NCBI GenBank assembly: GCA_951406725.2
Contig: OX597840.1
Location: 24,986,001-25,050,000, forward strand
Length of the DNA: 64,000 nucleotides
Source of the DNA: Octopus vulgaris
Lineage: Eukaryota
Direction of reading: 5' to 3'
Shown: piece after piece, positions 2,643-20,136 of the stretch
How the letters are laid out: every line of letters begins with the position of its first letter
Numbering within the stretch: the stretch's first letter is position 1
The notes under the pieces: generated by a model
Told to the model about the DNA's origin: nothing
Database searches by the model: none
What the model saw: only the letters and a program-made list of their open reading frames with translations
Program-made: the position numbers and the translations under genes

Positions 2643-2762
2643 AACTCACTTTGATATTTATCATTGTTTGATTTCACTTTTTCAATATCAGCGACAGTGG
2701 ACGCTGGAAAAAGTATAAGTATTTGTGAAGGAAATCTAATTCTCGGCGACAACTATGATTGT

Positions 2763-2807
2763 CACACGCTGACGAGAGGTCAATACCTCGAAACTCGAGT
2801 CCGTGTG
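2763..2807 (+). ncRNA. Type I minimal hammerhead ribozyme
   Basis: cacacg CTGACGA gaggt caat acctc GAAA ctcgag TC cgtgtg: 6-bp stem I, 5-bp stem II, palindromic stem III, GUC site. Confidence 0.93.
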
Positions 2808-3115
2808 TATCATAAGTTGAAGACGGGAAGGATGACTTCCCTTTGCAAATACTGACAGGACACAGATAGTGTGTCTATGGCCAGCTGGAGGAGTGTGTCC
2901 TCCTGGGGCTAAAAACTACAGTAGCATCCACCCTTAGGGGTTAGCCATATTGAAATGGCAAAAATACGTCACGATGTGTTACCGCTACTGTATATAACTC
3001 ACATTGATATTTATCATTGTTTGATTTCACTTTTTCAATATCAGCGACAGTGGACGCTGGAAAAAGTATAAGTATTTGTGAAGGAAATCTAATTCTCGGC
3101 GACAACTATGATTGT

Positions 3116-3160
3116 CACACGCTGACGAGAGGTCAATACCTCGAAACTCGAGTCCGTGTG
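3116..3160 (+). ncRNA. Type I minimal hammerhead ribozyme (second unit)
   Basis: Identical to 2763-2807. Confidence 0.93.
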
Positions 3161-3381
3161 TATCATAAGTTGAAGACGGGAAGGATGACTTCCCTTTGCA
3201 AATACCGACAGGACACAGATAGTGTGTCTATGGCCAGCTGGAGGAGTGTGTCCTCCTGGGGCTAAAAACTACAGTAGCATCCACCCTTAGGGGTTAGCCA
3301 TATTGAAATGGCAAAAATACGTCACTATATATATATATATATATATATATATATACAATATGTTACATTACTCGGTAGTCA

Positions 3382-3444
3382 AGATAAAACTCTGAGTTTC
3401 AGATGCCGAAGTGGAAATCCACAACACCATCTCTTCGGTTATCT
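3382..3444 (-). ncRNA. Hammerhead-like motif, U4C variant (left arm)
   Basis: Reverse complement of 3600-3662. Confidence 0.65.
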
Positions 3445-3599
3445 GGCCATCTGAAAAGACGCTATGAAAAAATACCGTTAAATAAAGGGAAATTGACGAA
3501 AAATGCGAGCGATGTATAAGTACGCAGGCAAGCAGAGTTATAACAGAGTAATTTTCCTTTATTTATCGGTATTTTTTCATAGCGTCTTTTCAGATGGCC

Positions 3600-3662
3600 A
3601 GATAACCGAAGAGATGGTGTTGTGGATTTCCACTTCGGCATCTGAAACTCAGAGTTTTATCT
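3600..3662 (+). ncRNA. Hammerhead-like motif, U4C variant (right arm)
   Basis: agataa CCGAAGA gatg...catct GAAA ctcagag TT ttatct: 6-bp stem I, GUU site. Confidence 0.65.
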
Positions 3663-16133: not shown

Positions 16134-16340
16134 GTAGGTCCCGGGTTGAGTCAGGGTTAACCACAGTAAATAAGGTACTCAATACATAGCAGAGTAAATT
16201 AATTTATTATATAGAAGGAGCTTCTACAGGACTAGAACTGTTTCATTCAAAAGAAATCATCAGGAAGCGATGATTTCTGATGATTTCTTTTGAATGAAAC
16301 AGTTCTAGTCCTGTAGAAACTCCTTCTATATAATAAATAT
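16134..16340. mobile_element. (TA)n-nested fold-back HHR element
   Basis: Inverted arms ~16202-16263 / 16278-16339 with a left extension. Confidence 0.75.
16220..16268 (-). ncRNA. Type I hammerhead ribozyme
   Basis: gcttc CTGATGA t ttc tttt gaa t GAAA cag ttctagtc ctg TA gaagc: 5-bp stem I, GUA site. Confidence 0.85.
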
Positions 16341-16737
16341 ATATATATATATATATATATATATATATATATATATACTTATATACATATTTAAATACAT
16401 GTACAGAGAGAGATTAATAGATATATGTACTTATATATATATATACTCTTTATATATATATATCTGAAACAAAAAAGTCCCACGGGACGTGACTCGGTGA
16501 GTTTCGAACCCGCTGTACCTTCAACTGTGAAAGGAAGCAGAAAACGGATCAGTGAACGTTGCTCTTCTTTGAGGAAAAGAGGAAGCGTAACAACGATGAC
16601 CACATTTGATGTTTCAATGTCAAACTTGTAACCCGTCGACTGGAGAGAAAGGCCATGTCTAGCGAGGCAAACACAAAAAAATGTTGCCGCCAAAAGAAAT
16701 ATTCCTGAGTGCATTTTGAATAAATACTGTCTCACTC

Positions 16738-17550
16738 ATGTATGTATGTATGTATGTATGTATGTATGTATGTATGTATGTATGTATGTATGTATGTATG
16801 TATGTATGTATGTATGTATGTATGTATGTATGTATGTGTGTATGTGTGTTTGTATGTATGTATGTGTGTATGTGTGTACGTATGTATGTGTGTATGTATG
16901 TATTTGTATGTGTATGTATGTGTATGTGTGTATGTATGTATGTATGTGTGTATGTGAGTATGTATGTGTGTATGTGTGTATGTATGTATGTGTGTGTATA
17001 TATGTGTGTATGTATGTGTGTTTCTATGTATGTATGTATGTTTGTATGTGTGTATGTGTGTGTGTATGTATGTGTGTATGTGTGTATGTATGTGTGTATG
17101 TGTATATGTATGTGTGTATGTGTGTATGTATGTGTATATGTGTGTATGTATGTGTATGTGTATATGATTGTGTGTGTGTGTGTATGTATGTATGTATGTA
17201 TGTATGTATGTGTATGTGTATGTATGTATGTATGTATGTATATATGTATGTGTGTATGTATGTATGTATGTGTGTGTATGCATGTATGTATGTATGTATG
17301 TGTGTATGTATGTATGTATGTGTGTGTGTATGTATGTATGTATGTATGTATGTATGTATGTATGTATATATGTATGTGTGTATGTATGTATGTATGTATG
17401 TATGTATGTATGTATGTATGTATGTATGTGTGTGTATGCATGTATATATGTATGTATGTGTATGTATGTATGTATGTATGTGTATATGTATGTATGCATG
17501 TGTGTGTGTATATGTATGCATGTATGTATGTGTATTTATGTACGTATGTG
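16738..17550. repeat. (TATG)n microsatellite
   Basis: Directly visible. Confidence 0.95.
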
Positions 17551-17686
17551 CGCGTATATATTTCTATCTGTAGGTGTGTTTATGTATTTATATCTGTAGG
17601 CGTATAAAAATATATTTGTAGTTATATAATTTTAGTTTGTCATATCATTATATAGGATGTAAATAGCAAAATAACTTCATATAATC

Positions 17687-17793
17687 TAAACCTGAAGATT
17701 GACAATATAATCGTTATAATATGGTATTGTATTTCGAGACCTTCTATTTCAGCAATATCGAGGAATATATCGTCATGAAACGCGCGTAGTCTA
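17687..17793 (+). ncRNA. Type I hammerhead with a long stem II insertion, in an AT-rich element at ~17595-18071
   Basis: taaac CTGAAGA t tgac...gtca t GAAA cgcgcg TA gtcta. Confidence 0.72.
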
Positions 17794-19694
17794 TATAATG
17801 TAATGTATATAATTGAGAATAAGAATTATAGGTATTAATTTTGATAATTTTTTAATATTTAGTCCTATATTTAATATTTAATATTTATTTTAATATCGAT
17901 CTATCGTGGATAATGTCGTTCAATGATGATTGAGATTGCTTGAGGTTTATTCTGTCTCTTAAACCTATATATTTATACGTATATAATACAGTGAGTAATT
18001 TATTTCAGTACCACTAAATTGAACTTTCCCCCGCAGACTCGGAAATAACTTCCCTAATATTAATATTAATCATATATATATATATATATATATATATATA
18101 CACGTGTGTGTGTGTTTACACTTATGTATATGTATATATATATATATATGCAGGTACAAACATACATACTTGTATATAGGTATGTGTGTACATGTGTCTG
18201 CATGTGTATGTATATATGTATATATGTACATGTACATACTTAGATATATATATGCATATATATATAAATATACATACACGCGTGTATATACATACGTATA
18301 TGTATATATATATATATATATATATATATATATATATATATATATAGGTATATATATATATATATGCACACACACGTGAATATATATGTGTGTGTACATA
18401 CACACTCACATGCACACACGCGCTCGCGCATGCGCACGCACGGAATATGCTTCCGTTGATTGCAATGTGGCAACAAATGGCTGCTTCTGTTGAAAGACGA
18501 CCATATGCCGTCATCTCTGATTTATTGCTTCAATTCAATTCCAGCCCCACCTCATCATCAAACCACAAAATTACCACCCTTAACTAAAAAAAAACCCCAA
18601 AAAACAAAAAACAATTATATGAACACACACACACACACACACACACACACACATACACACACATACACACACATGCATACACATACAGAGGCATATATAC
18701 ACGGAGATATTCTGCGACACGTACATACATACGTCCGTACCATACACTGCTTTCATGGCGAAACATGTTTTTTTTTCTGTAGTAGAAGCTTGATCGTAAA
18801 TCCGTGTGCCGAGGCGTGTGTATTATAAACCGTGCAAAGTCTCCAGAAGGATTAACGTGTCTTGTTAATCTACAATGATTCATAATCTGATTCCAATGAA
18901 AGGAAACACAAAAAAAGGAAAAAAATACATATAAATTAAAATATAAAAAAATGCAACAAAATATATTTTAATAAAAAATTAAATTAAAATATTAATAAAG
19001 TCTACACTACACGTGTGTGTATTTATATGTTGGGGTGTGTATATATATATATATTGCGTGTATATATATATATATATATAATTTTCTTATTCTATATATA
19101 TATATATACATACACACGCACACACATATGCATAGAGAGATATACACACACGTAAACACACATATATAATACACACACATATACACACATATATACAGAT
19201 ACATATATAATACATAATACATACACACACGTCTATATATATATATACACACACACACACACACACATATACATATACATATATATATATATATATATAT
19301 ATATATATATATATATATATATATATACGCTCACGTATATATTGTTATCCTTGCTTCTGTCATTAGTCGTTTTGACGGATTTAGTTGATCAAATCGACCC
19401 TGGCACTTATAATGATTTTTTAAGATTGCAACTTATTCCATCGGGTCGCTTTTGGTGAACCGCTAAGTTACTAGGACGTAAGCAAGCGAGAGGTGTTTCC
19501 TAGTAATTAATGTACAAAGGCAGACACGCGAGCGCCCAGACGTAGACATAACCGTATTTTTGCATATATATATATATATATATATATTATATGTATATAT
19601 ATATATATATATATATATATATATATATATATATATATATATGTATATATATATATATACATATGTATACATACACATATATATATATGTATGT

Positions 19695-20136
19695 ATATGG
19701 CGATAACAATTAATTTCCAGTAACGCTGCCGTAATCTCTTTTAGAGAGACTTAGTAATTTTAATATTTCTATTATTGAAAACAAGTGGATGTATTCCACC
19801 GAAACTAGGTAAATAAAACCTTCGAACAGAGACGATCAGTGGCGACACCTGCTGGGTCGACTACGCTACATTGACAAAGGGCAAATACCCTGAAACGCGT
19901 CTGTAGCTATCTGACTGGCAGTGTGAAGCGGCTGACCTCCCTTGTTCGAAGGTTATAATGGACACAATTTGTGTGTCAAATAGCTATCTTAAGGCGATGG
20001 CCTCATGGAGCTAATCAGCGACAGCTTTTAGTCTTATATCTATAAGACTGCCATATTAATATGGCGATAACAATTAATTTCCAGTAACGCTGCCGTAATC
20101 TCTTTTAGAGAGACTTAGTAATTTTAATATTTCTAT
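19695..20136 (+). mobile_element. Retrozyme-like element: 364-bp unit plus a 78-bp terminal redundancy, in (TA)n
   Basis: Direct repeat 19695-19772 / 20059-20136; internal HHR and several hairpins. Confidence 0.8.
19865..19907 (+). ncRNA. Type I minimal hammerhead, U3-A8 covariant core
   Basis: gctaca TTGACAA aggg caaata ccct GAAA cgcg TC tgtagc. Confidence 0.85.

Follow-up and report, generated by a model that had tools for sequence, protein, structure and literature searches.

Two short tandem arrays, here named A and B, lie in a stretch of 64,000 nucleotides (nt) of Octopus vulgaris DNA (GCA_951406725.2, contig OX597840.1, positions 24,986,001 to 25,050,000), which is referred to as the window and whose first letter is position 1. 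Both carry type I hammerhead ribozymes, and their units of 353 nt (A) and 364 nt (B) form a homologous pair of structured RNAs with conserved signals, a proposal of a preliminary description of this DNA that is borne out by sequence comparison, by Sankoff-type structural alignment and by helix-by-helix inspection. With a probability of roughly 0.72, we read A and B as two young families of retrozymes without long terminal repeats (non-LTR retrozymes) which are mobilised by the enzyme of a Penelope-like element (PLE) that starts internally on circular or multimeric RNA. This reading is adopted because family A has a fixed end without target homology and tandem copies that read through it, which matches the in vitro behaviour of a PLE of Anolis.

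Two hammerhead arrays in one window

The repeat periods of 353 and 364 nt, like the positions of four motifs named in the preliminary description, were verified. Between the copies of array A, only 2 of 330 positions are unlike, and the 78-nt overlap between the copies of array B is identical, which suggests that both arrays are young insertions. Their units have low GC fractions (0.425 for A, 0.409 for B) and strong self-pairing when folded as circles (z -5.9 and -7.0, respectively), and neither contains a long open reading frame (ORF), the longest ATG frames having 38 (A) and 18 (B) codons. The arrays are the sole matches in the window, no third copy or family being detected there by nhmmer.

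Hammerhead A1 is composed of a helix I of 6 bp, a helix II of 4 bp with a 6-nt loop 2, a C3-G8 core and a palindromic helix III, ACUCGAGU. The ribozyme of B has the same helix I and II lengths, with an A-U pair first in helix II, a palindromic helix III (ACGCGU) and a U3-A8 core variant of the kind described from Schistosoma PLEs (PMC4209133); helix III is, thus, self-complementary in both families, while the sequences are unlike. At locus A, two intact hammerheads are present, as Li et al. (10.64898/2026.07.22.740005) require for "active" retrozymes, and the double-hammerhead formed by A1 and A2 is the predicted lowest-energy structure of 2750-3170. Locus B is a monomer-type copy with a single hammerhead and not two consecutive hammerhead units. 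According to folding predictions, imposing the monomeric active fold would take 6.8 kcal/mol in A and 1.5 kcal/mol in B.

The Rfam family RF00163 aligned with the A ribozyme over 45 of its 45 model positions, with a score under the gathering cut-off of 34 bits; for hammerhead B there was no Rfam match at E up to 10, no Rfam family covered the non-hammerhead part of either unit, and at gathering score the whole window gave 0 matches. Our own hammerhead descriptor, run over the window, returned the three real motifs together with one poor chance match at 55448.

Homology of the units

The preliminary description had ascribed little sequence identity to the two units, which was an overstatement. 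Depending on the aligner, 175 of 350 and 182 of 345 columns (MAFFT) or 218 of 337 columns (pairwise aligner) are identical, corresponding to 50-65%. The global score of A versus B was 197 compared with 92 +/- 11 for dinucleotide shuffles, none out of 1000 of which scored as high (alignment z ~10), and each of five domains aligned above its shuffles (0-2 of 500 as high). Judged from their sequences, the units are plain homologues, and the two families appear to have a common ancestor.

For the structural comparison, a Sankoff-type aligner was written for this analysis, which matched 95-97 base pairs between the units. A structural score no better than that of shuffled controls had been named in advance as the outcome that would speak against a shared RNA architecture. 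The structure-only score of 285 exceeded all 89 shuffles (104 +/- 37, maximum 207), so that the proposal withstood this comparison; it also exceeded 102 simulated neutral descendants of A (102 +/- 33, maximum 193), ten rotations, both reverse complements, and the 77 domain reorderings that were scored of 119 possible (maximum 267).

Pattern scans returned, with tight and loose settings, 0 and 35 loci in metagenomes and 2 and 120 in viral contigs, respectively. When these 157 loci were compared with the A/B profile, none fitted it (best E 0.49), and a hammerhead upstream was absent from all 37 two-hairpin matches; all loci were, therefore, rejected as chance.

The shared fold

Folded separately (z -6.1 for A, -7.1 for B), both units give a rod capped by the hammerhead, followed by hairpin H1, an interrupted hairpin H2, a multibranch domain (H3) containing a GCCAT hairpin, and an AT-rich domain (Table 1). 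Motif order and spacing agree as had been claimed, H1 lying 58 nt (A) and 60 nt (B) past the cleavage site and the folds being colinear. That pairing is kept although helix sequences differ is correct helix by helix: in the closing helix of the rod, 13 bp are matched and 6 of the 13 have changed on both sides, and the same applies to 4 of 6 pairs of helix I. It does not extend to the AT-rich 5' domain, which is refolded between the units, nor to structure-blind alignments (see below). In contrast to these exchanged helices, all 6 pairs of the H1 stem and all 5 pairs of the GCCAT hairpin are identical in A and B. From the MAFFT alignment, RNAalifold predicted the hammerhead, H1 and two H3 hairpins, and missed the rod because that alignment is out of register. 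For the end hairpin of H3 in A, no stable counterpart is predicted in H3 of B.

The motif GGCGACA (2745 and 3098 in A, 19841 in B) supplies, in the predicted folds, one side of the conserved internal loop CGACA/UGAAG and is not a free-standing signal. This 2x2 loop lies identically across the rod in both units, with pair probabilities of 0.84-1.0, and both of its strands are kept, though the 3' strand in B is 6 nt farther from the cleavage site. The palindromic motif GCCATATT.A.ATGGC is found at 2944-2959 and 3297-3312 in A and at 20050-20065 in B. It had been termed terminal, which the array ends do not support: the units are circularly permuted, array B starts mid-palindrome, and the distance from palindrome to array end is 13 nt in A versus 71 nt in B.

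Table 1. Features of arrays A and B and of the adjoining repeat (window positions)
Feature	Position	Strand	Details
Array A	2643..3325	+	1.93 head-to-tail copies of a 353-nt unit
Array B	19695..20136	+	1.21 copies of a 364-nt unit; TA-rich tracts on both sides; ends +/- 2-3 nt
Hammerhead A1, type I	2763..2807	+	predicted cut after 2801; RF00163, 32.2 bits, E 5e-6
Hammerhead A2, type I	3116..3160	+	predicted cut after 3154
Hammerhead B, type I	19865..19907	+	predicted cut after 19901; found by own descriptor
Rod A, capped by hammerhead A1	2718..2853	+	closing helix 2718-2730/2841-2853
Rod B	19817..19954	+	closing helix 19817-19829/19942-19954
Internal loop A, 2x2 GA/AA	2747..2822	+	CGACA 2747-2751 paired with UGAAG 2818-2822
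Internal loop B		+	CGACA 19843-19847 paired with UGAAG 19924-19928
Hairpin H1 of A, GACAC-N7-GTGTC	2859..2875	+	second copy 3212-3228
Hairpin H1 of B	19961..19977	+	
Interrupted hairpin H2 of A	2878..2911	+	
Hairpin H2 of B	19981..20013	+	
Multibranch domain H3 of A	2917..2992	+	GCCAT hairpin 2944-2959; end hairpin, loop CACG 2970-2973
Domain H3 of B	20018..20096	+	contains perfect 16-nt palindrome 20050-20065
Predicted 353-nt monomer	2802..3154	+	between the two cuts of array A
Family-wide 3' end of A	3325..3355	+	unit position 2972 at 3325, then (TA)15
Dispersed SINE-like repeat	2256..2642	-	outside the element; adjoins the 5' end of array A, first 9 nt absent

Family A in sequencing runs

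Sequencing runs were sampled for family A, family B being known from one locus. In 20 of the 24 runs listed (11 studies, eight organism labels), at least 0.91 of the words of unit A are present; three of the 24 may be the source sample. In four runs, X1, X2, X5 and X20, the contigs fitting 2700-3052 number 6, 49, 4176 (X2) and 2036 (X20). Family A is thus very high-copy, with thousands of contigs per run in X2 and X20. The end-to-start joint of the unit occurs in three of these four runs.

Among the rows listed, a recurrent end directly behind position 2972 was found in all four runs (1, 1, 41 and 30 contigs). It coincides with the stop base of array A in the window (3325 = 2972 + 353) and lies 171 nt past the cleavage site (+171) and 13 nt past the GCCAT hairpin, within the loop of the hairpin that follows. 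A diverged contig (7 differences over 67 nt, ~90% identical) ends at 2972, too. The window, X5 and the X2 consensus continue past this base with TA runs, X1 and X20 with AT-rich DNA without TA runs, while tandem copies of A read through +171 without any tail. No pile-up at the cleavage site was seen among the loose-end rows listed. No target-site duplication longer than 4 bp was found at array A, and the flanks of array B share TA repeats only.

Loose ends at 2893, 2895, 2896 and 2900 were rejected as element ends, since they read like diverged versions of unit A. One of these versions, with the loose end behind 2893 (X2, X5, X20), is a subfamily in which the H2 loop is shorter and resembles that of B, with the stem still paired. 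Other contigs are alike to A from the hammerhead to H2 at ~80-85% and are unlike it upstream (before 2778 in X2) or extend several hundred bases beyond it (X20, records 16 and 18); they may belong to a third family or to the terminus of a PLE.

A proposed route of mobilisation

On this reading, tandem copies of A or B would be transcribed, whereupon two hammerheads would pair via helix III and release a monomer of 353 or 364 nt, which a host ligase may close into a circle. A PLE reverse transcriptase-endonuclease would then bind the conserved fold and nick TA-rich DNA, and reverse transcription would begin internally at the end hairpin and follow the circle, or a multimer left uncut, over variable lengths. 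Since the insertions of both families span the cleavage site, the template was presumably a circle or an uncut multimer and not a cut linear monomer.

In such a scheme, the H1 stem, the GCCAT stem and the CGACA/UGAAG loop would be the likeliest sites of protein recognition, with the other helices as scaffold. We tentatively suggest, at somewhat less than even odds, that these three elements are cis-signals for the PLE and that the +171 loop is a defined start of reverse transcription. A role of the conserved signals in recognition by a reverse transcriptase had already been raised in the preliminary description; it gains indirect support from the position of the fixed 3' end of family A beside the GCCAT hairpin. 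Nothing was found that touches on the role in ligation that was raised there as well.

Points that weigh against the proposed route

Several results tell against PLE-mobilised retrozymes or against the evidence used for them. No reverse transcriptase or GIY-YIG domain was found in the 133 frames of the window, hence no partner PLE there. According to Li et al. (10.64898/2026.07.22.740005), only one of nine retrozyme dimers was cleaved in vitro. None of the runs listed is on record as RNA, so that they hold no evidence either way on transcripts, and the loose-end evidence comprises the 22 rows listed of 313. A contig of 383 nt in X1, consisting of unit A plus a 30-nt overlap and matching the first copy of the window in a closed loop, could stem from a tandem array of DNA just as well as from a circle. 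The end of array B lies at ~+235, in another hairpin loop and not at the equivalent of +171; at this one locus, the difference may reflect a second start site, priming by microhomology or a deletion after the insertion.

The structural evidence has its weak sides as well. Double-sided changes amount to 31 of 95 pairs, which is no excess over shuffles (26.8 +/- 7.7). In structure-blind alignments, pair retention does not clearly exceed a null of permuted columns (p 0.04-0.67), and double changes do not discriminate (p 0.02-0.44); two sequences are insufficient for covariation to serve as proof. Folding z-scores favour neither the plus strand nor RNA over DNA. Family-A variants (40 listed, with one private change of the window left out) agree with the fold weakly: 17 of 24 are consistent with it (p 0.03-0.14), and either of two common variants, considered on its own, disrupts helix II.

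Alternative explanations

The fixed end itself admits other origins. In a route like that of a short interspersed nuclear element (SINE), it would be inherited from a master locus whose transcript enters (TA)n, a reverse transcriptase of a long interspersed nuclear element priming on that tail; the TA runs behind the end in the window, X5 and the X2 consensus accord with this, as do 3 nt of possible microhomology between the end of B and its TA tract. However, tandem copies cross +171 without a tail, the ends at 2972 in X1 and X20 meet AT-rich sequence rather than TA runs, and the 90%-identical contig stops at the very same base, which makes this route unlikely. We consider it slightly less probable still that the units are merely truncated terminal repeats (pLTRs) of autonomous PLEs and not independent elements. 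PLEs are typified by a fixed 3' end, partial tandems and a 5' end that varies (PMC8557442); among 57 Xenopus retrozyme families, 24 have matches to repeats, with PLEs as 21 of the 22 matched (10.64898/2026.07.22.740005); and the X20 contigs of records 16 and 18 match part of the unit before passing into unlike sequence; yet the unit closes on itself with a period of 353 nt, its longest ATG frame has 38 codons, and the helices have the canonical sizes of 6 and 4 bp, not those of the minimal PLE type. An origin from pLTRs would, for that matter, be compatible with retrozymes moved by a PLE enzyme. The hairpin near the fixed 3' end, the tandem copies, the AT-rich targets and folding z-scores of -5.8 and -5.7 computed for DNA would also suit a non-autonomous, Helitron-like element replicating as a DNA rolling circle, with the palindrome 13 nt before the end as terminator hairpin. 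Such an element is very improbable, given that the end reads GTCAC instead of the CTRR of Helitrons (HLE1/HLE2), that there is no TC start and no terminal inverted repeat longer than 5 nt between the array ends (11-18 nt expected), and that two conserved hammerheads would be left unexplained.

Two further explanations concern the conserved motifs rather than the mode of transposition. At the motif level, and without excluding the other readings, GCCATATT.A.ATGGC could be an inverted pair of YY1-type sites of an internal promoter, acting in DNA and not as an RNA hairpin: the YY1 site of L1 is given as CAAGATGGC (PMC5381506), ATGGC occurs on one strand of each arm, the loop letters ATT are kept in A and B, and 0 of the 40 variants listed fall in 2944-2951. 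The match is short, though, and family A does have variants in the second arm, at 2952 and 2954, both of them hairpin loop positions, so that we regard this as rather unlikely; from the YY1-like letters, a role of the conserved signals in transcription, as likewise raised in the preliminary description, is possible. Similarly doubtful is that the shared architecture reflects only ancestry and selection for an overall stable fold, no single helix mattering beyond the ribozyme. The covariation that is not above its null and the changed fold of the AT-rich 5' domain would agree with it. In simulations under selection for stability alone (a simple model without indels, rows counted by hand), on the other hand, 0 of 100 runs reached the observed scores of the 3' domain (112 and 165; maxima 107 and 160), two invariant stems of at least 5 bp arose in 1 of 100, and both strands of CGACA/UGAAG were kept in nature despite the 6-nt shift in B.

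Comparison with known systems

Within the available sections of the papers cited here, A and B most resemble (i) non-LTR retrozymes and (ii) PLEs. With the former, they share a tandem unit of 150-450 nt, a canonical type I hammerhead, a GC content below 50%, self-pairing and the lack of an ORF (PMC7229834; 10.64898/2026.07.22.740005). Mussel units measure 350-390 nt, axolotl harbours two families side by side, with units of 330 and 350 nt, and sequences and structures are similar among related corals (same sources). In contrast to non-LTR retrozymes as described there, no target-site duplication was found for A and B, and B has a U3-A8 core; moreover, A has a fixed, family-wide 3' end leading into TA- or AT-rich DNA, and both units hold invariant motifs outside the ribozyme. 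A review notes that retrozyme repeats show no conserved motif indicating the partner element (PMC7761336).

The pLTR hammerheads of PLEs are likewise of type I, with a palindromic helix III, the U3-A8 variant and partial tandems (PMC4209133, PMC8557442). PLEs further resemble A and B in an internal start in a stem loop 3' of the hammerhead and in AT-rich or (TA)n targets (PMC11167929, PMC8557442): in vitro, the Anolis enzyme cleaves AT-rich DNA and, without target homology, initiates at an internal site, an AC-rich stem loop 3' of the hammerhead (PMC11167929), and microsatellites are the preferred targets of Neptune and Naiad PLEs, those of Naiads being (TA)n (PMC8557442). Unlike autonomous PLEs, A and B lack an ORF for a reverse transcriptase plus GIY-YIG domain. 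The minimal PLE hammerhead has a helix II of 7-8 bp and a helix I of 4-5 bp versus 4 and 6 bp here, and the start would lie 171 nt past the cut in A compared with ~85-92 nt in the Anolis element, as subtracted from numbers in that paper (PMC11167929).

Hammerhead satellite DNAs of cave crickets (pDo500, PMC2837043) and newts are also built of tandem units with a conserved hammerhead and compensatory changes. While the non-hammerhead part of pDo500 is described as less conserved, A and B keep three invariant non-hammerhead motifs at 50-65% identity.

The units had been called possibly undescribed. This stands for families A and B only, since non-LTR retrozymes as a kind are known (PMC7229834; 10.64898/2026.07.22.740005). 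No literature on either family, or on a fixed end in retrozymes, was found in a search outside which lay most subscription journals, Repbase, Dfam and the supplement of PMC7229834. New are, accordingly, the two families and the candidate recognition signals, whereas the class, the ribozyme and the presence of two families per genome are known.

How animal retrozymes return to the genome is a question for which a partner has only been proposed. Here, two families at 50-65% identity serve as a natural footprint, showing which parts have to be retained, and the fixed end of A marks the place where copying probably starts, in a very abundant young repeat that is missed by Rfam cut-offs. If true, the cis-signals and the +171 start would be the first mapped packaging or priming signal for an animal retrozyme, and the proposed partnership of PLEs and retrozymes would become directly testable in vitro.

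Other repeats in the window

The window consists of AT-rich eukaryotic DNA that is dense in microsatellites and in which two dispersed repeats occur many times. One is a SINE-like repeat of 400 nt at 331-761, 1370-1775 and 2256-2642 with ~18 further matches; copies lie in both orientations and share 70-93% identity with the one at 1370, and ARAGORN found no tRNA gene. The other measures 225 nt (23142-23550, 33795-34397, also 3856-4083, 25471-25695 and 28751-28975) and occurs additionally in partial tandems with periods of 184 and 190 (2-3 copies, 95-97% alike), a layout like that of retrozyme arrays, without a hammerhead.

Right after the (TA)15 of array A, a long imperfect inverted repeat extends over 3345-3700. 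It matches its own reverse complement at 88% identity across ~355 nt and may be either an insertion like a miniature inverted-repeat transposable element or an inverted PLE-type insertion. A mariner-type transposase fragment (Pfam HTH_48, E 6e-22) is located on the minus strand at 38926-39396. At 53676-53852, a 55-nt unit is repeated three times in tandem, each copy consisting of ~25 unique bases and a TA run.

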